A DNA stretch of 37,548 bases from an uncultured Syntrophus sp. (GTDB taxonomy: Bacteria > Desulfobacterota > Syntrophia > Syntrophales > UBA5619): positions 1 through 37,548 of the forward strand of contig CAYOGU010000001.1 of NCBI GenBank assembly GCA_964403345.1. Reading direction: 5' to 3'. The notes below the pieces were generated by a model. It ran no database searches. It was not told where the DNA came from and saw nothing but the letters and a program-made list of their open reading frames with translations. Shown here in pieces: positions 175-26,761 of the stretch; the stretch's first letter is position 1, and every line of letters begins with the position of its first letter. The position numbers were made by a program, and so were the translations under genes.

Positions 175-1323
175 TCAGTATTTGCAGTTGTCCTGGAAGG
201 TTTCCCACATCGCGATGAAGTTCTCCACGGGAACGTCGTCCTGGACGTTATGGACGGTGGAGAAGACGAACCCGCCGCCCGGTGCGAAGGTGTCGATGAG
301 CCGCTTCGTCTCGTCCCGGACCTGCTGGGGCGTGCCGTTGGGCAGGGTCGCCTGGGTGTTGATCCCGCCTCCCCAGAAGACGATGTCCTTCCCGAACTCT
401 TTCTTGAGCCGCTCGGGTTCCATGTTCGTTGCTGCGATCTGGACGGGGTTGAGGATGTCGTAGCCCGCATCGATGATGTCCGGCAGGATGTCGTAGACCG
501 ACCCGCAGGTATGGAGCATGATTTTGACGTCCTGTTTGGACTTGATGTGGGCGTTGAGCTTTTTGTGGCAGGGCATCATCATCTCCCGGATCAGCTTCGG
601 AGAGACGAAGGTGCCGCGCTGGGTGCCGAAATCGTCTGGCTCGGCGGTGGTGTCGATCAGGCCGCCGTAGACCTCGAAGATGTTGTCGTAGTACTCTATT
701 TTCTTCTCAAGCAGTTTCTCCATGAAGGGGATGCACCGTTCCGGTTCGGCCACGAGCATGGCCAGCCAGTTCTCGAACCCCCAGACGAGGGGCCCGGTCT
801 GGAGGAAGCCGTTGCCGAAGACCTCGGTAATCATGGTGGCATAACCGGCCTTTCGGTAGTCCTCGAGCTCCTTGCGATCCTCCTTGGCGAACTTCTCCGG
901 CACGGGCCAAACGAACGCCTGGTCCTCTTCGGCGCTTTCCGAATTCTTGAGGACCGTGTCGTAGAGGTCGAAGTAGAGGGCCTTCTGCTTGGGCATCCGG
1001 TAGAGGGTGCCCCATTCGTTCCTCGCGTAGTAGCTCTCGTCGTCTTCCCATTTCTTGGAATAGGGATTGGGGGGCTTGATGGGCTTGAGCCTGGGATTGC
1101 GCACGTCACACTTCAGCAGATCCAGCACCCGGTCCGAGGCATAGACGACCTGGTAGGGCAGGCTGCAGATTTCCAGCTTGTCCTCCTTGATGCCGAAATA
1201 ATCCAGCAGTTTCAAGTAGAAATACTTGGTGAACTTGCAGCAGTGGCCGGACCCGAGGTCCAGGGGGATGCGGTCGGGTTCCCTGTGATTCAGGGCGCAC
1301 AGCACTCTTTCACGTGAATTCAT
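175..1323 (-). CDS. URO-D (uroporphyrinogen decarboxylase) family, MtaA/MtbA-like corrinoid-dependent methyltransferase (candidate substrate:corrinoid MT I)
   Basis: 382-aa ORF. ATG at 1323 is preceded by TAGGAGG. Contains 'REPDRIPLDLG' and 'LHTCGS...ILNPVQ' (H-x-C-G zinc-type motif), typical of URO-D-like methyltransferases. Lies 11 nt downstream of a corrinoid protein gene. Confidence 0.8.
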   Translation of the reverse strand: MNSRERVLCALNHREPDRIPLDLGSGHCCKFTKYFYLKLLDYFGIKEDKLEICSLPYQVVYASDRVLDLLKCDVRNPRLKPIKPPNPYSKKWEDDESYYARNEWGTLYRMPKQKALYFDLYDTVLKNSESAEEDQAFVWPVPEKFAKEDRKELEDYRKAGYATMITEVFGNGFLQTGPLVWGFENWLAMLVAEPERCIPFMEKLLEKKIEYYDNIFEVYGGLIDTTAEPDDFGTQRGTFVSPKLIREMMMPCHKKLNAHIKSKQDVKIMLHTCGSVYDILPDIIDAGYDILNPVQIAATNMEPERLKKEFGKDIVFWGGGINTQATLPNGTPQQVRDETKRLIDTFAPGGGFVFSTVHNVQDDVPVENFIAMWETFQDNCKY

Positions 1324-1334
1324 GAACGGTCCTC

Positions 1335-1976
1335 CTAGTTGAGACGTTTATTCAGTTCTTTGGCCTTGCTCGCGGCCGTGGCCGCGTCCGCCGCAAATCC
1401 GTCGGCTCCGATGGAATCGACAAAGTTCTGGGTGATGGGGGCCCCGCCCACCATGACCTTCACCTGGCTCCTCACCCCTGCGGCGATGAAGGCGCCGAGC
1501 GTCTCCTTCACGGCCGGCATGGTCGTGGTCAGGAGGGCCGAAATTCCCAAGACCTTGCAGTCGGGGTTGGCCTTGATCGCCTCGATGAACGTTTCGGCCT
1601 TCACATCCACGCCCAGGTCGATCACTTCGAACCCCTGGCTCTCGACCATCATGGCGACGAGATTCTTGCCGATGTCGTGCAGGTCCCCCGCCACGGTTCC
1701 GATGATGAACTTGCCGATCGTGGCACCGGTTTCGCCAACCAGCTGCGGCCTCAATGTCTCCAGACCCTTTTTCATGGCCCGGGCAGCGACGAGCATTTCC
1801 GGCACGTAAATCTGACCGGCCTTGAATTTTTCGCCGACAGCCCCCATGGTGTCGATCATTCCCTGCAAAATCTCCAAGGGCTTCAGGCCATCCCCGATGG
1901 CCGCCCCGATCAGGTCCTGAACATTCTTCCCCTTGCCAGATTCAATGGCTGCAGCAATCTCCTGGATTTTGGACAT
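1335..1976 (-). CDS. Corrinoid (cobalamin-binding) methyl-carrier protein, MtaC/MtbC/MttC-like
   Basis: 213 aa. Helical cap plus B12-binding Rossmann domain with 'GTVAGDLHDIGKNLV' (D-x-H-x2-G), 'SALLTTT' and 'GGAP'. RBS GGGAGAAAAAACAG precedes the ATG at 1976. Confidence 0.9.
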   Translation of the reverse strand: MSKIQEIAAAIESGKGKNVQDLIGAAIGDGLKPLEILQGMIDTMGAVGEKFKAGQIYVPEMLVAARAMKKGLETLRPQLVGETGATIGKFIIGTVAGDLHDIGKNLVAMMVESQGFEVIDLGVDVKAETFIEAIKANPDCKVLGISALLTTTMPAVKETLGAFIAAGVRSQVKVMVGGAPITQNFVDSIGADGFAADAATAASKAKELNKRLN

Positions 1977-2031
1977 CTGTTTTTTCTCCCTTTCTCTATT
2001 GAGTGGTTATGGCGGACTTCTTCGAAATCCC

Positions 2032-2066
2032 CTGCCCTGGCATAAACGGGCAACATCCCAGGGCAG
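2032..2066 (-). other. Intercistronic hairpin between the DUF1638 and corrinoid protein genes
   Basis: CTGCCCTGG-(17 nt)-CCAGGGCAG, a 9-bp perfect stem with only a weak U-rich tail (GGGAUUUCG) on the minus strand. Confidence 0.35.
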
Positions 2067-2831: not shown

Positions 2832-4163
2832 TCAGAAGATGTGGTTCGGTATCCACGTAACGATATCGGGGAATAGGCACATGAGGATGACCCCAATGAC
2901 CTGCATGACCATGAACGGAATGGTCGCCCAGTACAGCTCGCTGATCGGGATCGGGATCTTCTGCTGCTGCGCCACCCCCTTGACGTAAAAGGCCGCATAG
3001 GAGAAGGGCGGCGACAGGTAGGAGATCTGGATCATCACGGCGAACATGACCCCGAACCAGAGGGGATCAAATCCCATCGCGTTGATGATGGGGGTGAAAA
3101 CGGGGATGCCGATGAGGAGCATCCCGTAGCAGTCGATGAACATCCCCATGATGTAGAGGATGAAGAAGATCAGCGAAACGATCACCCAGGGGTTGACGTT
3201 CAGGCCGCTGACGATGCTGTTGATCGCATCGCCTCCGCCGAGTCCCAGGAATACAGCCGTGAACATCGTGGCGCCCAGGATGATGAACATGATCATCGAA
3301 GTCGTCTTGACCGTCAGGTAGCAGCACTCCTTGGTCACTTTCCAGTTGAGTTTCTTGTTGTAGATGGCGACTGCCATGGCGCCGCAGCAGCCGAGGGCCG
3401 CCGCCTCCGTCGGCGTCGCGGCGCCCACCAGAATGGTTCCCAGGACCAGAAGGATCAGGATGGAGGTGGGCAGGACCGACTTGAAGAACATGTACCACTT
3501 CTGCGTACGACTGTACTTGGCCGCCTCGGACGGATCGATGGCCGGTGCGCTCTCAGGCTTGGTGACGATCTTCCAGATGATGTAGACCAAATAGAGAACC
3601 GACAGGGTCAGCCCGGAGCCGATGCCGCCGGCGAAGAGCTTGCCGATTGAAATCTGGGCCTGGGCTCCGTAGATGACCAGGATGATACTCGGCGGGATGA
3701 GGGTCCCCAGGCAACCGGCCGCCATGATCGTGCCGGCCGCGAGCTTTGCGTCGTACTTGCACTTGTGCATGGCAGGCAGGGCCAGGATCGTCATCAGGGT
3801 GATCGAAGCACCGATGATGCCGCTCGCCGCGGCCAGCAGCGTGCAGATGACGACCGTCGTGATCGCGATGCCTCCCCGCAGGGGGCCGAAGATGACGTAC
3901 ATGGAATCGAAGAGGTCGTCGGCCGCTCCCGACCTCTCGAGCATGGCCCCCATGAAGATGAACAGGGGAATCGACGTGTAGACGATGTTCGTCCCGATGC
4001 TCGTCGTGGTCCGGACGAAGAGGTTCAGGGCAGCGGGGTTTCCCCATACCGTCGCCGCGGAGATGCAGGCCAGCCCGCCCAGGGTGAAGGCCAGGGGGTG
4101 GCCGCTCAGAAGGACGATCAGAAAAAGGACGCCGACAATGGCAAGGGTTTCCAGCGGTGTCAT
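2832..4163 (-). CDS. TRAP transporter large permease, DctM family
   Basis: 443 aa, highly hydrophobic multi-TM protein. The ATG overlaps the stop of the upstream small permease gene (ATGA coupling at 4160-4163). About 12 TM segments, typical DctM length. Confidence 0.9.
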   Translation of the reverse strand: MTPLETLAIVGVLFLIVLLSGHPLAFTLGGLACISAATVWGNPAALNLFVRTTTSIGTNIVYTSIPLFIFMGAMLERSGAADDLFDSMYVIFGPLRGGIAITTVVICTLLAAASGIIGASITLMTILALPAMHKCKYDAKLAAGTIMAAGCLGTLIPPSIILVIYGAQAQISIGKLFAGGIGSGLTLSVLYLVYIIWKIVTKPESAPAIDPSEAAKYSRTQKWYMFFKSVLPTSILILLVLGTILVGAATPTEAAALGCCGAMAVAIYNKKLNWKVTKECCYLTVKTTSMIMFIILGATMFTAVFLGLGGGDAINSIVSGLNVNPWVIVSLIFFILYIMGMFIDCYGMLLIGIPVFTPIINAMGFDPLWFGVMFAVMIQISYLSPPFSYAAFYVKGVAQQQKIPIPISELYWATIPFMVMQVIGVILMCLFPDIVTWIPNHIF

Positions 4164-4675
4164 AGTTCTACCCCCTTGGTGACGTAGACGAGATCACGGA
4201 TCCATTTCGCCAGCCCCTGCAAGAGCAGGAGGAGATAGCTGACCGCGAAGATGACCTTCAGGGGATACAGGGGGGGCGCCCACATGCTGAAGGTGGTCTC
4301 CCGGATGCCGACCGAGTAGATCGCGTTCCCGCCCATCTTCCAGACCATGACGCCGGCAAAGACGAAGAAGACCGTGGTAAAGAAGAAGAGATCAAAATAG
4401 GCTTTCCACTTCTTGGAAAGGCTGTTGTAGAAGACGTCCGTGCGGACGTGGTTGCTCTCCTTGAGCACCCAGGCCCCGCCCATCATGAAGAAGGCGCCGA
4501 AGAGCATGGCCGCCAGCTCCCAGCTCCAGTCCGTGGGCTTCTGGATGACGTAACGGAGAATCGATTCCCCGGTCTCCAGAACGATGATGGGCAGGACCAG
4601 CATGCTGAAAAGTTTCCCGGCCCAGACGCTCAAGGAATCGATTCCTTTTAGCAGTTTGTCGATTTTTGCAATCAT
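4160..4675 (-). CDS. TRAP transporter small permease, DctQ family
   Basis: About 171 aa with 4 predicted TM helices, located between the dctP-like and dctM-like genes. The ORF track starts at a GTG at 4684, only 2 nt after AAGGAG. I prefer the ATG at 4675 (11-nt spacing). The start is uncertain by 9 nt. Confidence 0.8.
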   Translation of the reverse strand: MIAKIDKLLKGIDSLSVWAGKLFSMLVLPIIVLETGESILRYVIQKPTDWSWELAAMLFGAFFMMGGAWVLKESNHVRTDVFYNSLSKKWKAYFDLFFFTTVFFVFAGVMVWKMGGNAIYSVGIRETTFSMWAPPLYPLKVIFAVSYLLLLLQGLAKWIRDLVYVTKGVEL

Positions 4676-4773
4676 GGCTTTCACGACTCCTTATCCCGTT
4701 CGAAGGGTGCAGCCGTCCGCTCATCACGACGGCTGCACCCTCAGGCACTCCGACTCGTTCGACCGAGAACCGG

Positions 4774-5865
4774 TTACTTGTACGTCCCGGGCTTGAATCC
4801 CATCTGCTGCTCCGGCGTCAGGCCGTCACCCCACCACGCAGCCATGGTTTTGTAGGGGTACCAGACTTCCATGAATTTGTAGATCGAATTGTAGGTTTCC
4901 GCCGTAAGGCCGCCGTACTTCTTGATGTCCTCCTGCTCGATGGCGTACATCTGCTTGCGCAGTTCGATGAACGGCGCCTTGTCCATCCGCGAGAACTGCA
5001 TCTTCTTCTTCGCTGCCAGATCGCGCATGGCCACGGCGCTCAGGTACTGGCTCTTGGTCCAGTGCTGGTGCTCGCGGGCCTTGAAGGCCAATTCCACGAC
5101 GGTCTGGATGTCCTGGGGCAGCTTGGCCCAAGCGCTCTTGTTGACCACGACGGTCGTGATGAAATGTCCGTTCCAGAAGTCCGGGAAGATCCCGTGCTTG
5201 GCAATGTCGGTCAGGCCGAGGCCCTCGTTGTACTTGAGGTGTCCGAATTCGGCCGCATCCACGGTGCCGGTCTGGAGGCCCGTGAACACCTCTTCAAGCG
5301 GCAGCGTGATACCGGCCACGCCGTACTTGGCCAGGAGCCGGGGATCGGAGGTCCGCATTTTCCTGCCCTTCATCTCGGCAAGGCTCTTGTAGGGTTTGTT
5401 CGCCATCATGACCTCGGTTCCCCAGATCTCCACGGCCAGGAGCTTGAGGTTCATCTTGTCGAAGGCCTTCTGGAGCAGGTTCCATCCGCCGAACTCATAG
5501 ACCCAGACCCACCGGTCATGGGCGTCGAGTCCAAGCCCCATCGTGGACAGGGGCAGGAAGGCGTACTCCACGCCCTTTGCGTAGACCGGCCAGCTTGAGT
5601 GCATCTCGAAGACGCCGTCGCCGCAGGCCTGAAAGGCCTCCAGGCTGGGGGCGAAGGTCCCGTTCGGGCTGACCTTGATCTGGAGCCTTCCGCCGGTGGC
5701 CTTCATGATGTCCTCGGCCGTCTGCGTGTTCTGCGCGAAATCGGAATGGGCGTTGCTGTGAATGACCTGCATCCGCCACGTCCACTGGGGCGACGCCGAC
5801 CAAGCGACCGAAGCAAAACAAAGCGCCGTCAGTAAAGCCACGAGAAACAACCCCTTCATTTTCAT
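4774..5865 (-). CDS. TRAP transporter substrate-binding protein, DctP family (Sec signal peptide)
   Basis: 363 aa. Signal peptide 'MKMKGLFLVALLTALCFASVAWSA'. 'KGRKMRTSD' matches the DctP-family G-x-K-x-R strand that carries the carboxylate-binding Arg. RBS GAAGGAGG. Confidence 0.85.
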   Translation of the reverse strand: MKMKGLFLVALLTALCFASVAWSASPQWTWRMQVIHSNAHSDFAQNTQTAEDIMKATGGRLQIKVSPNGTFAPSLEAFQACGDGVFEMHSSWPVYAKGVEYAFLPLSTMGLGLDAHDRWVWVYEFGGWNLLQKAFDKMNLKLLAVEIWGTEVMMANKPYKSLAEMKGRKMRTSDPRLLAKYGVAGITLPLEEVFTGLQTGTVDAAEFGHLKYNEGLGLTDIAKHGIFPDFWNGHFITTVVVNKSAWAKLPQDIQTVVELAFKAREHQHWTKSQYLSAVAMRDLAAKKKMQFSRMDKAPFIELRKQMYAIEQEDIKKYGGLTAETYNSIYKFMEVWYPYKTMAAWWGDGLTPEQQMGFKPGTYK

Positions 5866-6006: not shown

Positions 6007-7782
6007 TTAACGGAGCAGATCCCGGCAGAGCCTCGCCGCAGCCGGTGCATCGTAGGAAGTGCCGTCGGCGCCGATCTGCGCGGCAAAAGCCGGCGTCACG
6101 GGAGCGCCTCCCACGATGATCTTGACGACATCCCGAAGACCCTCGGACTTGAGGGCATCGATCGTATTCTTCATCTCGATCATCGTCGTGGTCAGCAGGG
6201 CGCTCATCGCCAGGATATCCGGCTTTCGGTTCCTGACCGCCTGGATGAACTTCTCCGTGCTCACCGATACCCCCAGGTCCTCCACCTGGAACCCCTGCCC
6301 TTGGAGAACCATCAACACCAGGTTCTTGCCGATGTCATGCAGGTCCCCATGCACGGTCCCGATCACGACCTTTCCAAGCGGCCGGGCCTCCCCCTTGCCG
6401 GCCAGGATCGGCTTGAAGTGGTCCAGCGCCTCGGACATGGCCCGCGCCGCGATCATCATCTCGGGGATATAGATCTGACCGTTCTGGAACATTTCGCCGG
6501 CGACGGTGATGGCCGGGATCATCCCCCGGCACACGACCTCCCCTGCCGCCATGCCGCCGTCGATCTCCCGCTGCATCATGTCGATCAGCTTGGGAACGTC
6601 GTCGGCGATGAGGGACTCCGCGTAAGCCTCCACATCCAGCCCCGTCTTCACCTTCGTCGTCTCGCTCCTGCGGATCTTCGTCTGGGAAGTCCAGATCTTC
6701 CCTTTGACCCCTCCTTCCTCCAGACGGATCGGGTACTTCCCGAATTCATAGGCCGCATCGAGCAGGGCCCTCATGTTTTTCACGGGAACGTAGTCAGTGA
6801 TGGAGTTTGAAGAGGCCACCATGTAGCCGCCGCCCGGAGCGATCGTCCGTATACGCTCATAGACCTCGGCCCGGACATCCTCGGGTGTCCCCAGCGTCAG
6901 GGTCGAATCGAGGTTGATGTTGCCGATCAGGCAGAGTTTCTTCCCCCACCGCTTCTTCACCTCGACGATGTTCATGGCGTTGGGCTGGACAGGATTGAAA
7001 CCGTGGAATCCGCAGTCGATCAGGTCATCCATTACCTCGGTGCAGTCGCCGTCGCTGTGCAGGACAAAGCCAATTCCTTTCTCCCGGCAGATCCGGCCCA
7101 TCTTCTGGTACCAGGGGAAAACATGCTTGCGCAGATATTTGGGATGAACCAGAAGCCCCGTGTTGAAGGCGATGTCGTCGGGGTTGATCACGGCCCCCAC
7201 GCAGGGGTGTTCGATGACCCGCAGGAAGGTCTGGTACTGGATCTCACCGATCTTGTTGATGATCGCCGCCACCAGTTCCTCATCCTGTTCCAAGGCGTTG
7301 AAAAAGGTCTCGGCCCCCATGTACATCCAGGCCGGGGTATAGATCTTTCCCAAGAGGAGAATCGCCTTCATCCCCTTGGGAAGGATTCGGTCGAAGACGC
7401 TCCACTTCGACAGGTCGAAATTGTCCGCCTTGGGCCAGTCATATTTCTCGAACTTCTCCCAGCTCGTGATGACCCCTTCATGGGTATACGCCCACTCCCG
7501 GGAAACCCTGTCCCCATACTCGGTGCGAACGCCTTCGCCTTTCAGCGTCATCCCTTCCGGCGCCCGGACCGGCTCCAGGATGCCGGAGGAAGAGGTCACG
7601 AAATCAAAACCCGCCTCATACCAGAAATCCACGTAGTCTTGCAGGGTCCTGATCTGCCTCCCCAGGAACGCCTCTTTGGGTCTCTGGTCCACGTGCCAGT
7701 CTCCCAGGGGCACCCGGTCGGGCTCCTCGCAGTGGAGAGCCGTCATGTACCTCTCGAAATCCGGCTTCGGTTCTCTGCCCAT
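6007..7782 (-). CDS. Fusion protein: N-terminal URO-D-like methyltransferase domain plus C-terminal corrinoid-binding domain
   Basis: The ORF is open to 7920, but the ATG at 7782 has a GGGAGGCAAGG RBS and begins the URO-D-like 'EEPDRVPLGDWH'. The C-terminal ~215 aa carry 'GTVHGDLHDIGKNLV', 'SALLTTT' and 'GGAP', as in the stand-alone corrinoid protein at 1335-1976. Confidence 0.8.
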   Translation of the reverse strand: MGREPKPDFERYMTALHCEEPDRVPLGDWHVDQRPKEAFLGRQIRTLQDYVDFWYEAGFDFVTSSSGILEPVRAPEGMTLKGEGVRTEYGDRVSREWAYTHEGVITSWEKFEKYDWPKADNFDLSKWSVFDRILPKGMKAILLLGKIYTPAWMYMGAETFFNALEQDEELVAAIINKIGEIQYQTFLRVIEHPCVGAVINPDDIAFNTGLLVHPKYLRKHVFPWYQKMGRICREKGIGFVLHSDGDCTEVMDDLIDCGFHGFNPVQPNAMNIVEVKKRWGKKLCLIGNINLDSTLTLGTPEDVRAEVYERIRTIAPGGGYMVASSNSITDYVPVKNMRALLDAAYEFGKYPIRLEEGGVKGKIWTSQTKIRRSETTKVKTGLDVEAYAESLIADDVPKLIDMMQREIDGGMAAGEVVCRGMIPAITVAGEMFQNGQIYIPEMMIAARAMSEALDHFKPILAGKGEARPLGKVVIGTVHGDLHDIGKNLVLMVLQGQGFQVEDLGVSVSTEKFIQAVRNRKPDILAMSALLTTTMIEMKNTIDALKSEGLRDVVKIIVGGAPVTPAFAAQIGADGTSYDAPAAARLCRDLLR

Positions 7783-7828: not shown

Positions 7829-8623
7829 CTATTCGATGCGACCTTCCCGAAATGCGCCGATGTACTCCATGCAGAAGTCGTCCTTGCCGGCAACCATGGT
7901 GACGGCCTTGAGCATGGCAAAGAGCTGCTTGTCCGTGGGATCGATGATCGCCGAATCCAACCCCATGGTGATCGCGGCAGCCAGAAACGCCCGGTTGACC
8001 AGTTTTCTCGCAGGAAGGCCGTAGGAAACGTTCGTCAGGCCGCAGACCGTGTGGACGCCGGGAAAGCGATTCATGATCCTGCTGATCGCCTTGAGGGTTT
8101 CGCTGGCCGACTGGGGATTGGTCGAGAGGGGATAGACCAGGGGATCAATGAGGATGTCGTCCAGGGGGACCCCCGCGCCGGTGAGCCTCTCCACCAGCCG
8201 TCCGGCCATCTCGACCTTGAGTTCGGCCGTCTCGGCCATCGCCTCCTCGGCCTGGCACAGGGCGATGATCTTGGTCTTGAATTCCACCACCAGCGGCAGG
8301 ATCCCTCCGAGCCGCGAGGGCTCCAGGGTGATGGAGTTGATGATCGGAGTCCTCTTGACCAGAGGCAGCATCGCCTTGATCACCTCCGGATCGGGGCTAT
8401 CGATGGAGAGGGGCAGGTCCGTCACCTCCTGGACGGCCTCCACGATCCATTTGAGCTTTTCGGCCTCCTCGCCGACAAAGGTCCCGGCATTCACATCGAT
8501 GTAATGGGAGCCGGCCTCGGTCTGGGCCTTGGCCTCTGCCTGTATAAACGCCCTGTCCCCCGCAGCGATGGCCTGGGCAATGGATTTCCGCGAGGCATTG
8601 ATCCTCTCAGCAATGATCAGCAT
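7829..8623 (-). CDS. Methyltetrahydrofolate:corrinoid methyltransferase (pterin-binding, MeTr/AcsE/MtrH-like; candidate MT II)
   Basis: 264 aa starting at 'MLIIAERINASR' (ATG 8623, RBS AAAGGAGGAGA). Pterin-binding barrel motifs 'IDVNAG', 'LSIDS', 'INSITL' and 'GLTNVSYGLP'. Confidence 0.85.
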   Translation of the reverse strand: MLIIAERINASRKSIAQAIAAGDRAFIQAEAKAQTEAGSHYIDVNAGTFVGEEAEKLKWIVEAVQEVTDLPLSIDSPDPEVIKAMLPLVKRTPIINSITLEPSRLGGILPLVVEFKTKIIALCQAEEAMAETAELKVEMAGRLVERLTGAGVPLDDILIDPLVYPLSTNPQSASETLKAISRIMNRFPGVHTVCGLTNVSYGLPARKLVNRAFLAAAITMGLDSAIIDPTDKQLFAMLKAVTMVAGKDDFCMEYIGAFREGRIE

Positions 8624-8727
8624 GGTGTCTCCTCCTTTTTTGTTGAAAACCCCAAGGGGTGCCGTGTACGGAGGCCGGGTATTCCGGATCGCTGGAGGAC
8701 CACCGACCACCGTCGCACGGCTTTGGC

Positions 8728-17131: not shown

Positions 17132-17141
17132 CGGAACGGAT

Positions 17142-18586: not shown

Positions 18587-18592
18587 CAACGG

Positions 18593-19891: not shown

Positions 19892-19918
19892 AGATTGCCT
19901 CTACCTCTCTTTCCTAAG

Positions 19919-20042
19919 CAGGCTGTTGAAAACCGCCTATCTGCGGCGTTTCCCTCATCCTTCGCCGTTCAACGTACCGGATCGTACGCCTCACGGCCCA
20001 GGATTTCGGGGGCCTTGCATCCGGGCCTTTTTGAACAGCCTG
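19919..20042. repeat. About 124-bp extragenic element bounded by terminal inverted repeats
   Basis: CAGGCTGTTGAAAA (19919-19932) pairs with TTTTGAACAGCCTG (20029-20042), 13 of 14 complementary. There is an internal CGTAC-CGGATC-GTACG hairpin. It sits in the 183-bp gap between the glcE-like and glcF-like genes. Confidence 0.6.
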
Positions 20043-20074
20043 TAACGGAGCCCTATTCCATAGGCTCTAGCGCC

Positions 20075-21442
20075 TCAGACGCCGGCCACAAACCGGCCGG
20101 GATTCAGGATTCCCGATGGATCCAGCTTCTCCTTCAGGCGGCGGACCAGAACCGCATCGCTGCGGGTCTTTCCCCATACGCTGAGTTTCTCCTTGATCGC
20201 CCGCGGGGCCTTCTGGACGACGAGGTTGCCGCCCTGTTTCACCGATTCCGCAGTGAGACGCTCCACCAGCGATGCGACCGATGCCGCCTTGGCCGCCGTG
20301 TCCGCACCCAGGGGAAGCGCTGCATACAGCAGGCCGTTGCCGGCCCGGCAGGTCAAGGCGCCTTCCAGAGAGGCCTCCTTGAGGGCCGCCTCGAAGGCCG
20401 TCACCATCTCAGGCACCTTGGACAGAACGAAATTGGATTTGAGGACCACCAGGTTGGGTGAGGCTTTGGCCAGGGTCCCGGCCAGATCCCCGTAGGCCGT
20501 CCAGAAATCGCGGTGCGCCTGGTCCTTGAGCGTGACCACGTCCAGCGCCCCGCCTTTGCGGCCCAGGTCGCCAAGTTCCGTGACCTGGCGCGCCACCGCC
20601 TCCTCGATCCCTTCCAGGCCGATCGCCGCCACGTAGGACCCCTTCAAGCCGGCGGAAGCCTTGAAGGCGGAGGCCGTCTTGGCGTTCATCAGTTCCATCG
20701 AGGCGGGGAAGAACTTGGAGTGGAGGAGCATCTTGAGATAGGCAGCGGCTTCGTTCAGGGTGCCGAAGGGGATCAGGAGCGTCGCCTCGGCGTCCGGCTT
20801 GGGATAGATCCGGAAGACGACCTCGCAGAGGATCCCCAGGGCGCCCATGGAGCCGATCATCATCTTGGTCATGTCGTAGCCGGCCACGTTCTTCACGGCC
20901 TTGCCGCCCGAAACGACGATATCCCCGTTGGGCATGACGGTCTTGACCCCGAGGATGACATCCCGCGCGGCCCCGTAGATGAAACGTTTCGGGCCGCTGT
21001 CGTTGGTCGCCACGATTCCGCCGATGGTCGCCTCCTGGGAGTAGGGAGGATCCAGGGGGATAAAATACCCCCTCCCCTCTCCCGCCAGCTTCTGCTGAAC
21101 CTCTGCCAGCGTCAGGCCGCACTCCACACCCACGGTCAGGTTGGCGATGTCGTAGTCGGCATAGCGCTTCAGCCTCCGGGTCGAAAGGAGGATATCCGCC
21201 TTCTTCTTGGGAATGCCGCCCAGGCCCATCTTGGTCCCGCTCCCCATCGGAACGACGGACAGCTTTTCGGCGTTGGCGCAGGCGAGGACTTTCGATACCT
21301 CTTCGATCGTCCCGGGAGCGACGAACAGGCCGGGAGCATCCCCATCCACCGCGTAGGCCTTGAGCTTTTCCGGATCTTCGATCACATTGGCCTCGCCGAC
21401 AATGGCCTTCATTTTCGAAGCCAATTTATCATAGTTGGACAT
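20075..21442 (-). CDS. FAD-binding oxidase subunit, GlcE-like
   Basis: 455 aa. PCMH-type FAD-binding domain ('VVPMGSGTKMGLGG'). Located between the GlcD-like and GlcF-like genes. Confidence 0.75.
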   Translation of the reverse strand: MSNYDKLASKMKAIVGEANVIEDPEKLKAYAVDGDAPGLFVAPGTIEEVSKVLACANAEKLSVVPMGSGTKMGLGGIPKKKADILLSTRRLKRYADYDIANLTVGVECGLTLAEVQQKLAGEGRGYFIPLDPPYSQEATIGGIVATNDSGPKRFIYGAARDVILGVKTVMPNGDIVVSGGKAVKNVAGYDMTKMMIGSMGALGILCEVVFRIYPKPDAEATLLIPFGTLNEAAAYLKMLLHSKFFPASMELMNAKTASAFKASAGLKGSYVAAIGLEGIEEAVARQVTELGDLGRKGGALDVVTLKDQAHRDFWTAYGDLAGTLAKASPNLVVLKSNFVLSKVPEMVTAFEAALKEASLEGALTCRAGNGLLYAALPLGADTAAKAASVASLVERLTAESVKQGGNLVVQKAPRAIKEKLSVWGKTRSDAVLVRRLKEKLDPSGILNPGRFVAGV

Positions 21443-21463
21443 ACCGTTATCTCCTTTCCTCGA

Positions 21464-22852
21464 TCAGGCCGCCTTTTCCGCCGGGAGCAGTTTTCCGGGG
21501 TTGTAGACTCCATCCGGGTCAAAGGCCAGTTTCACATTCCGCATCGCGGCAAGGTCCTGCGGGCTGAAAATAAAGGGCATCCCCTTGAGCTTCTCGACGC
21601 CGATGCCGTGCTCGCCGCTGATCGTCCCGCCCATCTTGGCGCAGATCTCCATGATCTCGAAGGCCGCCTTGTGCACCCGTTCCAGTTCGTCGGCGTCCCT
21701 CTGGTCGAAGAGGATGAGCGGATGGAGGTTTCCGTCCCCCGCATGGAAGACGTTGGCGATGGGGAGGTTGTACTTCTTGCCGATCTCGACCACCTTGGCC
21801 AGGGCCTCGGGAAGCCGGGTCCTGGGCACGGTCGGGTCGTTGACCAGATAGTTGGGACGGAGCCGTCCGACGGCCCCGAAGGCCCCCTTGCGGCCCGCCC
21901 AGATCTTGTCCCGCTCGGCGTCGGTCTTCGCCACGCGAACCTCGCGGACTTTGTTCTGTTTGCAGATGGCGACCACCTGATCGATCAGCCGGTCCATGCC
22001 GTCCTTGAGGCCGTCCAGCTCGATCAGGAGGATCGACGCGGCGTCCTCGGGAAGCCCCACGTGGTAGGCCGCCTCGACCGCTTTGATCGTCAGGTTGTCC
22101 ATCATCTCCAGCGTCGTGGGGATCATCCCGGCCTTGACGATGTCCGAGACGGTGTTGGCGCCATCGGCGATCGTGTCATAGATGGCCAGCATCGTCTTGA
22201 CCGCCTCGGTCTTCGGCATCATCCGGAGGACGAGCTTCGTCACCATCCCGAGCGTTCCCTCCGAACCGACCAGCAGGCCCGGAAAATCGAACCCCGGGTT
22301 GTCGAGAGACTTGCCGCCGATCTCGACCACCTGCCCGTCATAGAGGACCAACTCGGCGCCGAGGATGTGGTTGCTCGTCACGCCGTATTTGAAGCAGTGG
22401 GCGCCGCCGGCGTTCTCCCCAACGTTTCCGGCGATGGTCGTCGCTTTCTCGCTGGAGGGGTCCGGGTGGTAGAGGAAGCCGTACTTGCCAATCTCGCCCT
22501 TGATGTCCAGGGTGATGGCCCCCGGCTCCACGACGACCCGCTGGTTGTCCACATCGATTTCCAGGATCCGGTTCATCCGGGTGAAAAGCAGGGCAATCCC
22601 GCCTTCGGTGGGAGAACTGCCGCCGCTGAGGTTCGTCCCGGCGCCCCTGGCGACCACGGGGATCCCGTTGTCGTGGGCGAATTTGACGACCTTGGAGACC
22701 TCTTCCGTCGAGCTGGGCATGACGATGCACAGCGGCCTTCCGGGGTTGAGGGAGGCGTCGTAGCCGTAGAGCTGAAGCTCCATCTCCGAGGCCATGACAT
22801 CCTCTTTCCCGACGATCTTCGCCAGCTCCTGGATGACTTGATTGCGTTCCAT
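21464..22852 (-). CDS. FAD-linked oxidase, GlcD-like (glycolate / D-2-hydroxyacid dehydrogenase catalytic subunit)
   Basis: 'VVARGAGTNLSGGSSP' and C-terminal 'GTISGEHGIGVEK'. The ORF is open to 22921, but the ATG at 22852 follows GAAAGGAG. Confidence 0.8.
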   Translation of the reverse strand: MERNQVIQELAKIVGKEDVMASEMELQLYGYDASLNPGRPLCIVMPSSTEEVSKVVKFAHDNGIPVVARGAGTNLSGGSSPTEGGIALLFTRMNRILEIDVDNQRVVVEPGAITLDIKGEIGKYGFLYHPDPSSEKATTIAGNVGENAGGAHCFKYGVTSNHILGAELVLYDGQVVEIGGKSLDNPGFDFPGLLVGSEGTLGMVTKLVLRMMPKTEAVKTMLAIYDTIADGANTVSDIVKAGMIPTTLEMMDNLTIKAVEAAYHVGLPEDAASILLIELDGLKDGMDRLIDQVVAICKQNKVREVRVAKTDAERDKIWAGRKGAFGAVGRLRPNYLVNDPTVPRTRLPEALAKVVEIGKKYNLPIANVFHAGDGNLHPLILFDQRDADELERVHKAAFEIMEICAKMGGTISGEHGIGVEKLKGMPFIFSPQDLAAMRNVKLAFDPDGVYNPGKLLPAEKAA

Positions 22853-22920
22853 AACTTGACTCCTTTCAACGACCCGGACCGCATCTTCCCTTGGAAGCGG
22901 TTGAGGCGTCGCTTGAAACA

Positions 22921-22957
22921 AAGCGAAGCAATCCCGAAAAAGGCGATTGCTTCGCTT
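22921..22957 (-). terminator. Hairpin (13-bp perfect stem) between the citE-like and glcD-like genes; candidate terminator or processing site
   Basis: AAGCGAAGCAATC-(11 nt)-GATTGCTTCGCTT. On the minus strand it is followed by TGTTTCAAG, a short and imperfect U-tract. Confidence 0.4.
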
Positions 22958-23095
22958 ATGGTTCCGTCAGTGTTTGATCAGCTTGATCAGCATAAATCTG
23001 TTTTGGTTGCGTTGAAAGTTTACTTCATGAATTCCTGTTCGCTTTCCATATGTTCCACAGTCTTATGCCGACTGTTCCCTTCCCGCAGTTCCCTC

Positions 23096-23989
23096 TTACT
23101 TCTTCCGGAGGGCCTCCATGTCCTTGATCTCCTTTTCCTGGGACAGGATCGTCCGGGCGTTGTCGTAGACCGGCGTGTCGACCATCTTGCCCTTGTAGGA
23201 AACGGCGGCTTTGCCCATCGCAAGCCCTTCTTTCTCGAAGACGTCCACAACGCCGGCGGCCCATTCGACCTGCGCCGGGGTCGGCCGGTAGAGACGGTTG
23301 GAGGGTTCGACCTGGGTGGGATGGATCAGCATCCTGCCCTCGTAACCCATCTGGCGGCCTTCCATGACGCTCTTCTCGAAGGCCGGGATGTTCGCGAAAT
23401 CGACGAAGGGGCAGTCGATGGCGATGCAGCCGGCGGCGCGGGCGGCCACGGCGGTGTAGTACCGGCCGTAGAGCTGCTCGGTGGCCTCGGTCGTCAGGTC
23501 CACGCGCATATCCTTGCAGTAGTCGACGGCGCCAAAGATCAGCGAGCAGACGCGTTTGCTGGCCGTGGCGGATGCATAGGCGTTGATCATGCCCTTGGCC
23601 GTCTCGATCAGGAGCTGGATCGCGATGCTGCCCACCTGCAGGCCGCGCCGTCTCTCGAGTTCTTCGAGCTTCCAGTCGAGCCTCTTGACGTCGTCGGGAT
23701 GGCCGGTCTTGGCCAGGCACACGCCGTGGAGCCCCTCATGGACGATCGCCTCGAGGTCGTCGTTGGTCAGCAGGGTTTCCCAGTTGTTGATGCGGGAGAA
23801 GACCTTTGCGCCGCCCTTGCCGGCATGCTTCAGGTTCGCGGCGATGATCTCGCGAGCCTTTGCTTTCTCGGAGGGGGGAACGGAATCCTCCAGATCCAGG
23901 GTAATGATGTCGGCCGGGACTTCCGGGGCCTTGCCGACGAATTTCTCGTTGTTGCCGGGAACATAGAAAACGGACCTCATGACTGCCAT
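23096..23989 (-). CDS. HpcH/HpaI-CitE family CoA-ester lyase (malyl-/citramalyl-/citryl-CoA lyase-like)
   Basis: 297 aa. Contains 'VFYVPGNNEKF' and 'ITLDLEDSVPP', which are CitE-family N-terminal motifs. RBS AAAGGAG. Confidence 0.8.
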   Translation of the reverse strand: MAVMRSVFYVPGNNEKFVGKAPEVPADIITLDLEDSVPPSEKAKAREIIAANLKHAGKGGAKVFSRINNWETLLTNDDLEAIVHEGLHGVCLAKTGHPDDVKRLDWKLEELERRRGLQVGSIAIQLLIETAKGMINAYASATASKRVCSLIFGAVDYCKDMRVDLTTEATEQLYGRYYTAVAARAAGCIAIDCPFVDFANIPAFEKSVMEGRQMGYEGRMLIHPTQVEPSNRLYRPTPAQVEWAAGVVDVFEKEGLAMGKAAVSYKGKMVDTPVYDNARTILSQEKEIKDMEALRKK

Positions 23990-24017
23990 AATCGTATCTC
24001 CTTTCTCGCTTGGGGGG

Positions 24018-24932
24018 TTATTTGACCCTGAGTTTGCCCTGCTGTTTGAACTCCCTGAGTTTCCCCGGGATCTCGTTGGGATTGTCCACCACGATGATTC
24101 CCGCTTCCCTGAGCCGCGTGATCTTGTCTTGAGTCGAACCGCTGCCTCGCTCCACGATGGCGCTGGCGTGGGAGAACTTCATCCCGGCTGGCGCCCAGGC
24201 ACCGGACACGTAGATGATGATCGGCTTGGTGAACTTGCCGGACTTCACCAACTGGGCCGCCTCCTCTTCGTGGGAGCCGCCCATCTCGCCGAAGATGGCC
24301 ATGACATCCGTATCAGGGTCTTCCTGGTACAGGGGCAGAACGTCGGCAAAGGACATGCCCGTCACCGGCTCGGTCCCCACATGGAGGACCGTGCTGACGC
24401 CGAAACCCGCCTGGGCGATGACGTAGGGAAGGGTTCCCGACTGACCGCCGCTGCGGGAGATGACCCCCACATGGCCCGGCACGAAGTGCCGGTTGGCAAA
24501 CTCGACCGAACCGCCCAGCCATCCCAATACGCCCACACCCGGGGCGTTGACCCCGATGGAGCCCGGTCCCAGGAGCTTGGCCCCCTTCTGTTTCGCGTAG
24601 GCGACCATCTCCAGGATGTCGAAGAGGGGAACGCGCTCGACGGGCATGACAAGCCACTTGACGTCCGAATCCAAGGCCTCGAGGACGGCGTCCTTCAGAC
24701 CGGTCCCAGGGATGAAGGTCACGGAGACATCGAACAGACCGTGGTTCTTTACCGCGTCCCTGACTGTATTGTACACGGGGATCCCGTCCACTTCCTCGCC
24801 GCCGCGGCCAGGCGTAACGCCGGCGACGACGTTCGTCCCCATGCGCCGCATGAACTTGGCGCGCATGGAACCTTCCCGGCCCGTAATCCCCTGAATCACC
24901 ACTTTCGTTGACTTTGTCAGCAAGATAGCCAT
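24018..24932 (-). CDS. NDP-forming acyl-CoA synthetase alpha subunit, SucD-like
   Basis: Aligns by eye along its length with E. coli SucD ('TKVVIQGITGREG', 'GVTPGRGG', 'GVISRSG', 'KFSHASAIV' with the phospho-His). ATG at 24932 follows AAGGTGG. The upstream extension to 25043 overlaps the neighbouring gene. Confidence 0.85.
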   Translation of the reverse strand: MAILLTKSTKVVIQGITGREGSMRAKFMRRMGTNVVAGVTPGRGGEEVDGIPVYNTVRDAVKNHGLFDVSVTFIPGTGLKDAVLEALDSDVKWLVMPVERVPLFDILEMVAYAKQKGAKLLGPGSIGVNAPGVGVLGWLGGSVEFANRHFVPGHVGVISRSGGQSGTLPYVIAQAGFGVSTVLHVGTEPVTGMSFADVLPLYQEDPDTDVMAIFGEMGGSHEEEAAQLVKSGKFTKPIIIYVSGAWAPAGMKFSHASAIVERGSGSTQDKITRLREAGIIVVDNPNEIPGKLREFKQQGKLRVK

Positions 24933-24951
24933 ATTTTCACCACCTTCTTGG

Positions 24952-25227
24952 TTAGGATATTCCGTGCTTCTTACGGTACTCGTCCAGCCCCGGGATCGGC
25001 GCCTCGATCTTGATGGCCCCTTTTCCCCTGAACCCGCACTCATATTCGCATGCCAGGCACTCCGTCCCGAGCCGCTTGGCGTCCCCTTCCACGACGGGTT
25101 TGCCGTCTTTCAGGACCAATATCCCCCGAGCGTAGGTCTTGCAGGCCGCGATGCAGGCCTTGGACTCACATGCTGCGCATTTGCTGTCATCGATGATGAC
25201 CTTGATCGTCTGTTCCTGAAACTCCAT
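24952..25227 (-). CDS. Small Cys-rich ferredoxin-like protein inserted between the synthetase subunits
   Basis: 91 aa. Strong RBS AAAGGAGG. Seven Cys arranged as C-x2-C-x4-C-x3-C ... C-x2-C-x3-C, which is not the canonical C-x2-C-x2-C-x3-CP pattern. Confidence 0.6.
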   Translation of the reverse strand: MEFQEQTIKVIIDDSKCAACESKACIAACKTYARGILVLKDGKPVVEGDAKRLGTECLACEYECGFRGKGAIKIEAPIPGLDEYRKKHGIS

Positions 25228-25239
25228 GGGTGGCCTCCT

Positions 25240-26499
25240 TTACCCTTTCTTCTGCTGTTCTTTCTTGTATTCGAGAACCATCTCCTTCATCTCCGCGGCG
25301 AGCCCGACCGTGTCATAGACACGTTCGCCGCCGTAGATCCGGATCCGGGCGTTGAGATCCTTCGTCCCTTCCCTCAGGATTTCCAAGGACTCCTTCTCCT
25401 TGTTGCCCGCCAGGAGCAGCATGACCGGGAAGCCGGGATATTTGGGCAGTTCCTCCCTCAGGGCCTTGACGACGCCGTGGGCATGGTGCCACTGTTCCTG
25501 ATTGGCGGCCATGAATCCGCCCAGCATGTAGCCATCAATGCCAGGCTGGGAGAAGACGAGCTTGGCCGCGCGGTAGACCTTGGAGGCAGGGGGGTTGCCG
25601 CTCGTATCGGCGAAGTCGGGGACCCGGAGGCCCTGCTTGTTGAGGCCGTCGACGCCGAGCATGGCGCCACCGCCGCCCATGCCGTGATAACCGATCGTCC
25701 CGAAGCACTCCCCCTTGATCTGGTTGTTCATCTCGGCGAAGTAGCAGGTCCCACGGAGATCCTTCTCCTCCACCCACCAGGCGATCTTGTCCAGCTCCGT
25801 GGGGGGCGTTCCCGACTCGCGGGCCACCTCGATCCCCAGTTCGGGATGGCGGATGGCGGAGGAGTCGTCGATGGAAAGCCGGCAGTCGCTGGCCAGGACC
25901 TTGCCGTCCTTGGTGACGACCATGGGGTTGATCTCGATGAGGCGGCAACCGAAATTCTTGAAGGTTTCGTACAGTCCGACCAGGAGGCGGGCGACCTGGG
26001 TGATGTGTGCGCTGGGAACCCTGACCTTGTTGGCGAGGTTGAGGGCGTCGTAGATCTTGAAGCCGCGGATGACATCGATGTTCATCATGGCGATCTTGTC
26101 GCCGGGGACCGATTCGATGTCCATGCCGCCCTCGGTGGAGAACATGAAGACGGGGCAGCGGGCGTCGGCCTGGGCGTTCACAACGATACCCGCATAGTAT
26201 TCCCGGTCGATGGCCAGCTTCTCCTCGACCAGGACCTTCTCCACCAGGTAACCCTTGATCGTGGCCCCCAGGAGGGCGGCCGCCTGTTTCTCAGCCTCGG
26301 CAGGGGTATCGGCAAACTTTACGCCGCCCGCCTTCCCGCGGCCGCCGGTCCAGATCTGGACCTTGATGACAACGGGTTTTCCCAGTTTTTCTGCAATCTT
26401 TCTGGCTTCTTCCGGGGTCTTGGCGACAGCCCCTTCGGGGATCGGCATCTTGGCAATCTTGAACAACGCTTTACCCTCATGCTCATTTAAACGAGCCAT
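25240..26499 (-). CDS. NDP-forming acyl-CoA synthetase beta subunit (ATP-grasp), SucC-like
   Basis: 419 aa. 'LNEHEGKALF', 'VVIKVQIWTGGRGKAGGVKF' and 'YAGIV' resemble the SucC N-terminal ATP-grasp. The C-terminal ligase-CoA region is divergent ('DFADTSGNPP' where SucC has 'NFLDVGGGA'). RBS TAGGAGG. Confidence 0.8.
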   Translation of the reverse strand: MARLNEHEGKALFKIAKMPIPEGAVAKTPEEARKIAEKLGKPVVIKVQIWTGGRGKAGGVKFADTPAEAEKQAAALLGATIKGYLVEKVLVEEKLAIDREYYAGIVVNAQADARCPVFMFSTEGGMDIESVPGDKIAMMNIDVIRGFKIYDALNLANKVRVPSAHITQVARLLVGLYETFKNFGCRLIEINPMVVTKDGKVLASDCRLSIDDSSAIRHPELGIEVARESGTPPTELDKIAWWVEEKDLRGTCYFAEMNNQIKGECFGTIGYHGMGGGGAMLGVDGLNKQGLRVPDFADTSGNPPASKVYRAAKLVFSQPGIDGYMLGGFMAANQEQWHHAHGVVKALREELPKYPGFPVMLLLAGNKEKESLEILREGTKDLNARIRIYGGERVYDTVGLAAEMKEMVLEYKKEQQKKG

Positions 26500-26760: not shown

Positions 26761-26761
26761 A

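Follow-up and report, generated by a model that had tools for sequence, protein, structure and literature searches.

A 26-kb gene array of an uncultured Syntrophus sp. probably represents two neighbouring catabolic operons

Organization of the array

The window analysed here comprises 37,548 nucleotides of DNA from an uncultured Syntrophus sp. (contig CAYOGU010000001.1, assembly GCA_964403345.1). Between positions 26499 and 175 it carries an unbroken run of 24 coding sequences on the minus strand, identified by open reading frame (ORF) listing and profile searches. The upstream part of this array, unit A (26.7-14.3 kb), contains genes for a putative CoA ligase, a CoA-ester lyase, a 2-hydroxyacid dehydrogenase and a tripartite ATP-independent periplasmic (TRAP) transporter; the downstream part, unit B (14.05-0.18 kb), contains genes for folate enzymes, corrinoid-dependent methyltransferases and a second TRAP transporter. 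The array probably represents two independently promoted catabolic operons, which adjoin each other in a single lineage of uncultured Syntrophales. We regard them as separate because each has a conserved putative promoter of its own, each occurs alone elsewhere, and their adjacency is limited to this lineage.

An earlier, sequence-only reading of the window had described 24 co-directional coding sequences with gaps of mostly less than 100 nt and a few structured spacers. This description is borne out, and the gene assignments made at that stage were essentially right according to the profile searches. The total of 24 is reached only when a 91-residue Cys-rich ORF (25227-24952) and a 53-residue membrane ORF (14447-14286) are counted; both are kept in relatives and both are annotated as genes on JGI contig Ga0377239_000028. 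With revised start codons for SucD (24932), the second pterin methyltransferase (8626) and a fusion protein of unit B (7782), 16 of the 23 gaps are shorter than 100 nt. From SucC to the last gene they measure 12, 19, 28, 174, 21, 183, 293, 225, -4, 10, 57, 389, 71, 18, 25, 101, 46, 141, 89, -4, 75, 99 and 11 nt. As the other recognisable genes of the window (gamma-carbonic-anhydrase-like, CoaE, CoaX, BirA, NadC, ValS, MiaA and MutL) also lie on the minus strand, and the GC skew is uniformly negative across the window, co-directionality characterises the full 37.5 kb rather than the array. No regulator gene is found inside the array.

Species-representative genomes were scanned with DctP2, the solute-binding protein of the unit A transporter, which yielded 80 loci, nearly all from metagenome-assembled Thermodesulfobacteriota. 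Locus views extended 10 kb to either side of the matches, and all proteins of the window were mapped onto the 80 loci. A reverse mapping used the unit B solute-binding protein DctP1 and the fusion protein as queries. Individual loci are referred to by number (L001 and so on).

Genes of unit A

The array begins with a gene for a SucC-like beta subunit (25240-26499; this and all following gene coordinates refer to the minus strand unless stated otherwise) of a nucleoside diphosphate (NDP)-forming dicarboxylate-CoA ligase with an ATP-grasp domain (Pfam ATP-grasp_2, 6e-52), for which we propose a role as malyl-CoA synthetase (malate thiokinase). Among the NCBIfam models, it stays below the cut-offs for both the malate-CoA ligase beta subunit (PRK14046, 160.6 bits at a cut-off of 604) and succinate-CoA ligase (233 bits at a cut-off of 370), and among PDB entries it comes closest to succinyl-CoA and citryl-CoA synthetases. 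The SucD-like alpha subunit with its CoA-binding and ligase-CoA domains follows at 24018-24932, as assigned by profile matches with the revised start. Between the two subunits lies the conserved gene for the 91-residue Cys-rich, ferredoxin-like protein (24952-25227; CxxCx4Cx3C...CxxCx3C), which has no Pfam match. It occupies this position in 19 of 19 loci holding the SucC-SucD pair. Its homologues, 194 among 5.8 billion proteins, all come from uncultured Thermodesulfobacteriota, and when it was used as a query towards cultured glycolate degraders, none was reached among these 194 matches. For a CoA ligase of the NDP-forming type, an Fe-S subunit would be out of the ordinary.

The next gene (23096-23989) encodes an acyl-CoA lyase of the CitE/HpcH family (PF03328, 2e-37), a proposed malyl-CoA lyase. 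The HpcH_HpaI fold is clearly recognised (128.9 bits at a PF03328 cut-off of 25), and the best PDB match is the malyl-CoA/beta-methylmalyl-CoA lyase 5ugr (1e-35), followed by CLYBL. The protein also matches the models for citrate lyase beta and citramalyl-CoA lyase and remains below all NCBIfam equivalog cut-offs (82.5 bits at 500 for NF041626, 185.7 at 443 for citE). It is followed by three genes, together spanning 18593-22921, for a predicted 2-hydroxyacid dehydrogenase, with GlcD-like (22921-21464), GlcE-like (21442-20075) and GlcF-like Fe-S/CCG (19891-18593) subunits assigned by profile matches. All three score below their NCBIfam equivalog cut-offs (500/568, 159/284 and 167/333 bits, respectively), and the top model of the GlcF-like subunit is LdhH, an L-lactate dehydrogenase subunit.

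The transporter of unit A consists of DctP2 (17142-18299) and the membrane subunits DctQ2 (16916-16371) and DctM2 (16374-15058; together 15058-16916, profile matches). DctP2 is of the type of the calcium-lactate-binding protein TTHA0766 of Thermus thermophilus (PDB 2zzv, E = 3e-140), with which it shares 58-60% identity over the whole mature protein. TTHA0766 is described as binding calcium-lactate and discriminating against pyruvate, acetate and beta-hydroxybutyrate. Unit A ends with two conserved genes for small membrane proteins (14286-14966), one of 153 residues (14966-14505; its ORF reaches 15047) and tm53, the 53-residue protein (14447-14286). Neither has a Pfam match. Judged by eye, the larger one combines two predicted membrane helices with a soluble domain and the smaller one is a single helix. 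The 153-residue protein follows DctM2 in 53 of the 80 loci, and both proteins may be accessory subunits of the DctP2-type TRAP transporter.

With the transporter of unit B, the array holds two complete DctPQM sets. The Pfam DctP, DctQ and DctM matches are all above the gathering scores, and the two DctM proteins reach 293 and 318 bits against TIGR00786 dctM (cut-off 268). The two sets had been taken for clear paralogs, suggestive of duplication and divergence within the island. The identity values do not support this view: the two DctP, DctQ and DctM proteins share 30%, 34% and 38% identity, respectively, as compared with 58-60% between DctP2 and TTHA0766, and a duplication in situ was therefore rejected.

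Genes of unit B

Unit B starts with a pterin-binding methyltetrahydrofolate:corrinoid methyltransferase (MT II; copy a, 13102-13896), which exceeds the cut-off of PRK07535 (267.5 bits vs 259) and matches Pfam Pterin_bind. Profile matches identify the three following genes (8728-13030) as Fhs (13030-11255), FolD (11236-10349) and MetF (10323-8728). MetF and the DUF5981 'MTHFR C-terminal' (MetV-like) domain form one protein of 531 residues, as they also do on a related JGI contig. MT II copy b follows at 7829-8626 (PRK07535, 316.7 bits vs 259); it is 57% identical to copy a and, in other genomes, always stands before the gene for the fusion protein.

This fusion protein (6007-7782) joins a first methyltransferase (MT I) of the URO-D family to a corrinoid module made up of a cap and a B12 domain with the DxHxxG motif; the domain order is URO-D, B12-binding_2, B12-binding, an architecture like that of CmuA. 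From the start at 7782 it has 591 residues, the same length as its 120 best homologues, and the DxHxxG motif lies at residue 526 of the 637-residue ORF. Its 2776 homologues carry generic names only, and none is characterised. Against the MtaA/CmuA model TIGR01463 the fusion scores 53.1 bits at a cut-off of 235.4, and in an alignment with the zinc site of MtaA (4ay7) it shows H-S-D for H-I-C and SSNS for PGCG, which argues against membership in either the MtaA/CmuA subfamily or the coenzyme M (CoM)-type methyltransferases. A second, stand-alone methyltransferase of the URO-D family ends the array (175-1323, profile matches; 97% identical in L081). The URO-D profile PF01208 matches two array proteins with 78.4 and 63.4 bits (cut-off 23.9). 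The stand-alone protein keeps only the HxC half of the MtaA zinc motif (HTCG), while the fused one reads HSDG; the methyl donors on which the two act are therefore probably of different kinds. The two MT I enzymes are 26% identical to each other.

The remaining genes of unit B encode the transporter TRAP1 (2832-5865, profile matches), comprising DctP1 (5865-4774), DctQ1 (4684-4160) and DctM1 (4163-2832), a DUF1638 protein (2076-2756; PF07796, 2e-43) and a stand-alone corrinoid protein (1335-1976, profile matches) with cap and B12-binding domains and DxHxxG at residue 98. The solved relatives of DctP1 (4pe3, 7ug8, 2zzv, 4pet and 2hzk) are the same binders of small 2-oxo- and 2-hydroxy-monocarboxylates as those of DctP2, 2zzv being matched with E = 1e-21 only. 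The corrinoid module of the fusion and the stand-alone corrinoid protein are 51% identical. DUF1638 proteins are genetically tied to the reactivation of corrinoid (B12) with RamA-like proteins in other bacteria (PMC5764234, PMC12478193). At the very edge of the window, positions 1-90 of the plus strand probably hold the 3' end of a convergent gene for a RACo-type corrinoid reductive activase; the assignment is uncertain, resting on a short PHMED motif match with no stop codon identified. In the relatives L081, L103 and L104 a convergent Fer2-RACo gene stands right after the array, and the window ends where this gene would lie.

Distribution of the two units

The loci closest to the window belong to Syntrophales/Syntrophaceae from anaerobic reactors (L001 AnMBR.bin353, L002 UBA5619 and L005 UBA6112), and the nearest relative, L006, shares 90-97% amino-acid identity from SucC through GlcF. 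Across all loci, DctP2, DctQ2 and DctM2 with the 153-residue protein form the conserved core (53 of 80). Where at least 9 kb upstream are covered, a GlcD orthologue occurs in 23 of 46 loci and the SucC/SucD/CitE triplet in 15 of 46; about one third of the loci with TRAP2 and GlcD are without SucCD/CitE nearby. The block SucC-Cys-rich protein-SucD-CitE keeps its association with TRAP2 also in L043 and L047, where GlcDEF does not adjoin it, and in L047 a GntR/FCD regulator lies inside the unit A block. GlcC and LldR are members of the same regulator family.

The adjacency of the two units is much rarer. Folate genes downstream of the TRAP2 block were found in 5 of 50 loci with at least 7 kb of downstream sequence (L001, L002, L004, L005 and L080), in all of which the DctP2 identity is at least 86.7%. 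A 430-kb JGI contig carries the complete array in the same order and with the same ValS-NadC-BirA-CoaX-CoaE flank. The close DctP2 identity, the common order and the shared housekeeping flank indicate that the folate-adjacent cases represent one ancestral arrangement. In L080, Fhs-FolD-MetF is present without MT II-a. In L012 (DctP2 84%, SucC 86%), the genes from SucC to tm53 are intact and are flanked by TrmO, a cation/proton exchanger, methionine aminopeptidase and MlaE/ABC genes.

Unit B likewise has a recurrent core, which consists of MT II-b, the fusion, a TRAP transporter, a B12 protein or a URO-D and corrinoid pair, DUF1638 and often RACo. This core is found with a sigma54 activator of its own in L086/L090, L097, L098/L099 and L100 and with a sigma54 promoter of its own in L086 and L100; no folate or glycolate genes are present within 10 kb in L086/L090, L097, L098/L099 and L100. 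In L100, the identities of DctP1 (90%) and of the fusion (~80%) indicate a divergence as in the full-array contig L103. DctP1 orthologues follow the fusion gene in L081-L086, L090 and L100, and in L098 a fusion orthologue of ~80% identity is paired with an unrelated TRAP type. In the synteny comparison proposed on the basis of the sequence-only reading, the two modules are co-located in one Syntrophales lineage and occur each alone elsewhere.

Some of these loci show further variation. A second fusion-like protein, 33% identical to the first, replaces the stand-alone URO-D and corrinoid pair in L098 (15050-16972), L099 and L100 (15459-16733). It has 640 residues in L098 and L099 and is called as 424 residues in L100, where several genes appear fragmented; its URO-D match is very weak. 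DctP1 orthologues of 76-80% identity also lie in a different cluster (L087 4432-5505, L089 8140-9204), together with a DeoR regulator, an FGGY kinase, a flavin reductase, an FAD/CCG dehydrogenase pair resembling D-lactate dehydrogenase, a DmpFG-like aldolase/dehydrogenase, and a glycyl radical enzyme of the glycerol/diol dehydratase type with its activase. These contexts suggest, indecisively, that the TRAP1 substrate is a small hydroxy acid. In L089 and L094, the DctP1 orthologue (76-80% identity) stands directly after a D-lactate-dehydrogenase-like FAD/CCG pair.

Promoters and spacers

Upstream of SucC, a putative sigma70-type promoter, TTGACA-N18-AAAAAT (read here as TTGACA-N17-TAAAAA), is located at 26655-26684 on the minus strand. 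TTGACA followed by a TGTTA(A/T)AA-like box recurs in front of SucC in 13 of the 15 loci compared, among them distant ones with 56-67% identity. Another element, TGGCACCCATATTGC, is an exact match to the sigma54-type -24/-12 consensus (about 26761-26776, minus strand). It lies ~265 nt upstream of SucC, 90 nt beyond the sigma70-type box. It is found at the same distance in L006, L004, L010, L080 and L101 and not in L001, L003 and L012; being kept in the closest relatives only, it was rejected as the main promoter.

A putative promoter of another type precedes unit B. A sigma54 -24/-12 motif, GGCAT-N5-TTGC, lies 33 nt ahead of the MT II-a gene (13929-13944, minus strand), and ~90 nt further upstream there is a repeat, GGTGCAC-N5-GGTGCA, that resembles an upstream activator site (14027-14055, minus strand). 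The 389-nt spacer that contains them was aligned for the window, L001, L002, L004 and L005. It is almost fully diverged in these five genomes except for the sigma54 motif, whose GG and TTGC are invariant, and the GGTGCAC repeat, whose alignment columns are likewise invariant; both elements were also found in L103, which was checked additionally and brings the number of genomes to six. The window has no gene for an enhancer-binding protein that would serve this putative promoter. Such a pattern favours two or more transcription units, which would be read by different sigma factors.

Four long spacers of unit A were folded. Three of them, CitE-GlcD (22922-23095), GlcE-GlcF (19892-20074) and GlcF-DctP2 (18300-18592, all minus strand), are more stable than 200 of 200 shuffled sequences (z = -3.6, -3.2 and -3.1, respectively) and have no Rfam match; they may serve in processing, stabilisation or termination. 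The fourth, between DctP2 and DctQ2, contains a hairpin with a T-run directly 3' of DctP2 (17106-17132, minus strand; 12-bp stem with 10 GC pairs, TTTTTT), a candidate attenuator or terminator that looks like the usual device for producing more binding protein than membrane subunits. The structured spacers proposed from the sequence are thus confirmed for three cases and the hairpin. An Rfam scan of the window returned nothing at the gathering thresholds and only two implausible eukaryotic matches at E <= 1, and the long spacers are explained by no riboswitch.

Other features of the window

Among the plus-strand ORFs inside the array, the 10 longest were tested and have no Pfam match. An antisense ORF of 1170 residues (20513-24025, plus strand) and nine other long ones overlap real genes and match no family; they are typical high-GC artefacts. 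The ORFs at 13890-14279 (129 residues) and 26595-26951 (118 residues) were also rejected as genes, as they match no family and overlap the conserved promoter regions. The G+C content is 58-64% on the side of the array (1-27000) and 64-70% on the housekeeping side (27000-37548). With no mobile-element genes seen in the window, this contrast gives only a weak hint of a different history for the catabolic region. There are no tRNAs in the window.

Proposed functions of the two units

From the genomic context, we infer that unit A serves a route from glycolate (or glyoxylate) via malyl-CoA to malate. TRAP2, a TTHA0766-type system, would import a small 2-hydroxy acid, most likely glycolate, which the GlcDEF-like FAD/Fe-S dehydrogenase would oxidise to glyoxylate. 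The CitE-family lyase could then condense glyoxylate with acetyl-CoA to malyl-CoA, and the SucCD-like ligase with its additional Cys-rich subunit would convert malyl-CoA to malate with formation of ATP. This assignment is preferred because a lyase and an NDP-forming ligase match the malyl-CoA pathway, while the use of pyruvate from lactate needs neither of them. For unit B, read from its putative sigma54 promoter and upstream activator site, the gene content points to the import of a methylated carboxylate by TRAP1. The two URO-D-type methyltransferases, one of them fused to its corrinoid module, would place the methyl group on Co(I)-corrinoid, the two pterin-binding methyltransferases would pass it to tetrahydrofolate (THF), and MetF, FolD and Fhs would convert it to formate with the gain of one ATP. 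DUF1638 and a RACo activase, which is probably encoded on the opposite strand right behind the array, may keep the corrinoid active.

The presence of a TRAP importer inside the operon suggests that the methyl donor of unit B is anionic and probably carboxylated, a small alkoxy acid being one candidate among several. S-methyl donors such as 3-(methylmercapto)propionate (MMPA) and methyl-CoM were considered, since the URO-D enzymes include CoM methyltransferases; the lack of zinc Cys ligands in the fusion argues against them.

Several observations weigh against two separate operons with these functions. Lactate, not glycolate, is the ligand of TTHA0766, to which DctP2 is closest among characterised proteins, and the GlcDEF-, SucCD- and CitE-like proteins all remain under the equivalog cut-offs. 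The adjacency of the units has been held among relatives with only 50-70% protein identity (GlcE 67%, MT II-a 63-65%, the 153-residue protein 49-61%), and such lasting adjacency could reflect selection for linkage. Other corrinoid methyltransferase genes adjoin TRAP2 in L011, where they form a convergent cluster that also holds a PocR/AraC regulator and an MFS transporter, and in L057/L059, where an esterase gene is followed by an MT II-b-like gene, which may hint at a recurrent association. Finally, no terminator was found after tm53 at the end of unit A, and transcription may read through from unit A into unit B.

Alternative explanations

For the transporter and dehydrogenase part of unit A, lactate is the main alternative. 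That unit A is a lactate-utilisation operon, with the SucCD-/CitE-like pair acting on another acyl-CoA such as citramalyl-CoA or citryl-CoA, would agree with the specificity of TTHA0766 for calcium-lactate, with LdhH as the top model of the GlcF-like subunit and with those loci, about a third, in which TRAP2 and GlcD occur without SucCD/CitE; the matches of the lyase to citrate lyase beta and citramalyl-CoA lyase models would fit as well. The GlcDEF enzyme of E. coli also oxidises D-lactate. We nevertheless consider this explanation unlikely, as the catabolism of pyruvate requires no CoA-ester lyase or ligase and the block from SucC to CitE is bound to TRAP2 even in the loci without adjacent GlcDEF. 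Moreover, the best solved relative of the lyase is a malyl-CoA lyase, and a lyase together with a thiokinase fits the documented anaerobic route of glycolate. A second alternative concerns the flux through unit B, which might run reductively or biosynthetically, from formate via methyl-THF to an imported acceptor, or whose folate genes might be an unlinked housekeeping methyl branch. The folate and corrinoid methyl-transfer reactions are all reversible, the methyltransferase-TRAP core occurs elsewhere without adjacent folate genes, and L080 has the folate genes without MT II-a. In six genomes, however, a pterin methyltransferase heads the folate genes behind the conserved sigma54-type promoter, and no gap from MT II-a to the last gene exceeds 141 nt. 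TRAP systems are importers, and the combination of MT I, corrinoid protein, MT II and activase is typical of catabolic demethylases, which makes a reductive or unlinked unit B very improbable.

One hypothesis of the sequence-only reading linked the two modules into a single pathway. Their physical linkage is real and recurs in relatives, but beyond shared ancestry it lends no support to a joint pathway. In such a pathway, TRAP1 would import an O-methylated 2-hydroxy acid, for example methoxyacetate, the methyl group would go to THF and the resulting glycolate to unit A, with two ATP from substrate-level phosphorylation; more broadly, the ~2800 TRAP-coupled fusions of Thermodesulfobacteriota would then form an unrecognised class of 'methylated carboxylate' demethylases. 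There is a chemical precedent, the O-demethylation of methoxyacetate to glycolate by Acetobacterium (Schuppert & Schink 1990, as listed in PMC8048578). The solved relatives that DctP1 shares with DctP2, and the position of DctP1 orthologues directly after the dehydrogenase pair in L089 and L094, are weakly compatible with it. The MT I of the fusion is without thiol-type zinc Cys ligands, which speaks against S-methyl donors, and the units have stayed adjacent across appreciable divergence. On the other side, the adjacency is confined to one lineage with a common housekeeping flank, which amounts to a single evolutionary event. L100, L086 and L090 carry the fusion/TRAP1 module with its own regulator, and their 10-kb surroundings hold neither glycolate nor folate genes; fusion orthologues of ~80% identity can also be combined with TRAP systems of an unrelated type (L098). 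Unit A also has an importer and a sigma70-type promoter of its own, which would be needless if glycolate were made inside the cell, and we know of no natural abundance of methoxyacetate. Taken together, an integrated pathway, as well as the broader class, appears rather doubtful. Hardly credible is a serine-cycle-like assimilation of methylene-THF in which malate thiokinase and malyl-CoA lyase regenerate glyoxylate. It had been suggested by the presence of the same superfamilies (SucCD-like, CitE/HpcH-like) and of THF enzymes within 26 kb. Yet fhs, folD and metF do not stand beside SucCD/CitE as had been stated; they are ~10 kb away, beyond GlcDEF, the TRAP2 genes and those for the two small membrane proteins, and SucCD/CitE are kept with GlcDEF and TRAP in many genomes without nearby C1 genes. 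The ligase and the lyase score 160 and 82 bits at cut-offs of 604 and 500, respectively, and the 32 genes of the window include no glyA, serine-glyoxylate aminotransferase, hydroxypyruvate reductase, glycerate kinase or phosphoenolpyruvate carboxylase. The relatives are strict anaerobes from the Syntrophales and other Thermodesulfobacteriota. The carbonic-anhydrase-like gene is indeed present just upstream, but it is part of the CoaE/CoaX housekeeping flank and does not accompany the module in L012. Of the interpretations offered earlier, that of two catabolic modules for different acids therefore fits best, given their own promoters, their separate occurrence and the restriction of their adjacency to one lineage.

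Comparison with known systems

Both units are variants of system types already known. A malyl-CoA pathway for the anaerobic oxidation of glycolate or glyoxylate with ATP formation is reported for Syntrophobotulus glycolicus and Moorella HUC22-1 and assumed for Desulfofustis glycolicus, according to passages in PMC6313629 and PMC8092247 that cite work by Friedrich & Schink and Sakai et al. Unit A resembles it in the predicted glycolate dehydrogenase, malyl-CoA lyase and ATP-forming malyl-CoA synthetase and in a host of the syntroph type. The known pathway has been defined biochemically; the conserved 91-residue Cys-rich ligase subunit and the TTHA0766-type TRAP uptake set unit A apart, and the window lacks malic enzyme and pyruvate:ferredoxin oxidoreductase. 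In the literature searched, we found neither a gene-level description of the anaerobic malyl-CoA glycolate pathway nor a paper on a glycolate cluster of Syntrophales, and the genome paper of S. glycolicus does not mention malyl-CoA enzymes. With GlcDEF of E. coli, the dehydrogenase shares three subunits in the same order (FAD oxidase, second FAD-binding, Fe-S/CCG). It differs in its scores below the equivalog cut-offs and in a GlcE-like subunit of 455 residues with a full FAD-oxidase C-terminal domain, and there are no GlcC, GlcB or GlcA-type genes here. As to TTHA0766, the genomic partners of DctP2, a lyase and a ligase, point to a C2 acid and not to lactate.

The closest counterparts of unit B are the three-component corrinoid O-demethylases (Moorella MtvABC, Acetobacterium Odm and those of Desulfitobacterium, with a RACo/RamA activase). 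In common are the URO-D-type MT I, the DxHxxG corrinoid protein, the pterin-binding MT II and, in relatives of the array, an activase nearby; unit B differs in the fusion of MT I to its corrinoid module, in the TRAP importer and DUF1638, and in its placement behind Fhs-FolD-MetF under a putative sigma54 promoter. The chloromethane cmu clusters of Methylobacterium and Hyphomicrobium combine CmuA/CmuB with metF2-folD-purU. Unit B shares with them the fusion of an N-terminal methyltransferase to a C-terminal corrinoid part, a pterin methyltransferase as partner and the neighbouring MetF and FolD. However, it has Fhs in place of PurU and an anaerobic host, its fusion stays below the TIGR01463 cut-off, and its TRAP system implies a charged carboxylate rather than a gas as the substrate. 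Finally, the split methionine synthase/glycine-betaine demethylase set of roseobacters (MtgC, a RamA-like protein and DUF1638) resembles unit B in that DUF1638 is encoded beside a corrinoid protein and co-occurs with a RamA/RACo-type activase; its MT I is of the MttB/MtgB family and works in methionine synthesis, whereas that of unit B is of the URO-D type in a catabolic context. No paper on TRAP-linked corrinoid methyltransferases was found in the literature searched.

Implications

The unusual features of the array are the conserved Cys-rich ligase subunit, the two membrane proteins attached to TRAP2 and the large, uncharacterised family of TRAP-coupled fusions. The adjacency of the two units is no evidence of a joint pathway, and this case should temper the inference of pathways from strand and adjacency alone. 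If the doubtful integrated pathway were nevertheless true, one ATP each would be gained via formyl-THF synthetase from the methyl group and via a novel malyl-CoA synthetase with an Fe-S subunit from glycolate. With two separate operons, which we consider probable, unit A would provide a candidate gene set for the anaerobic oxidation of glycolate via malyl-CoA, a pathway known from enzyme assays since the 1990s, and the pathway would include an unexpected ligase subunit of the Fe-S type, in Syntrophales that are abundant in digesters and sediments and in their relatives. The TRAP-linked fusions of methyltransferase and corrinoid protein could be a hidden source of formate and H2 for methanogens, derived from methylated organic acids.

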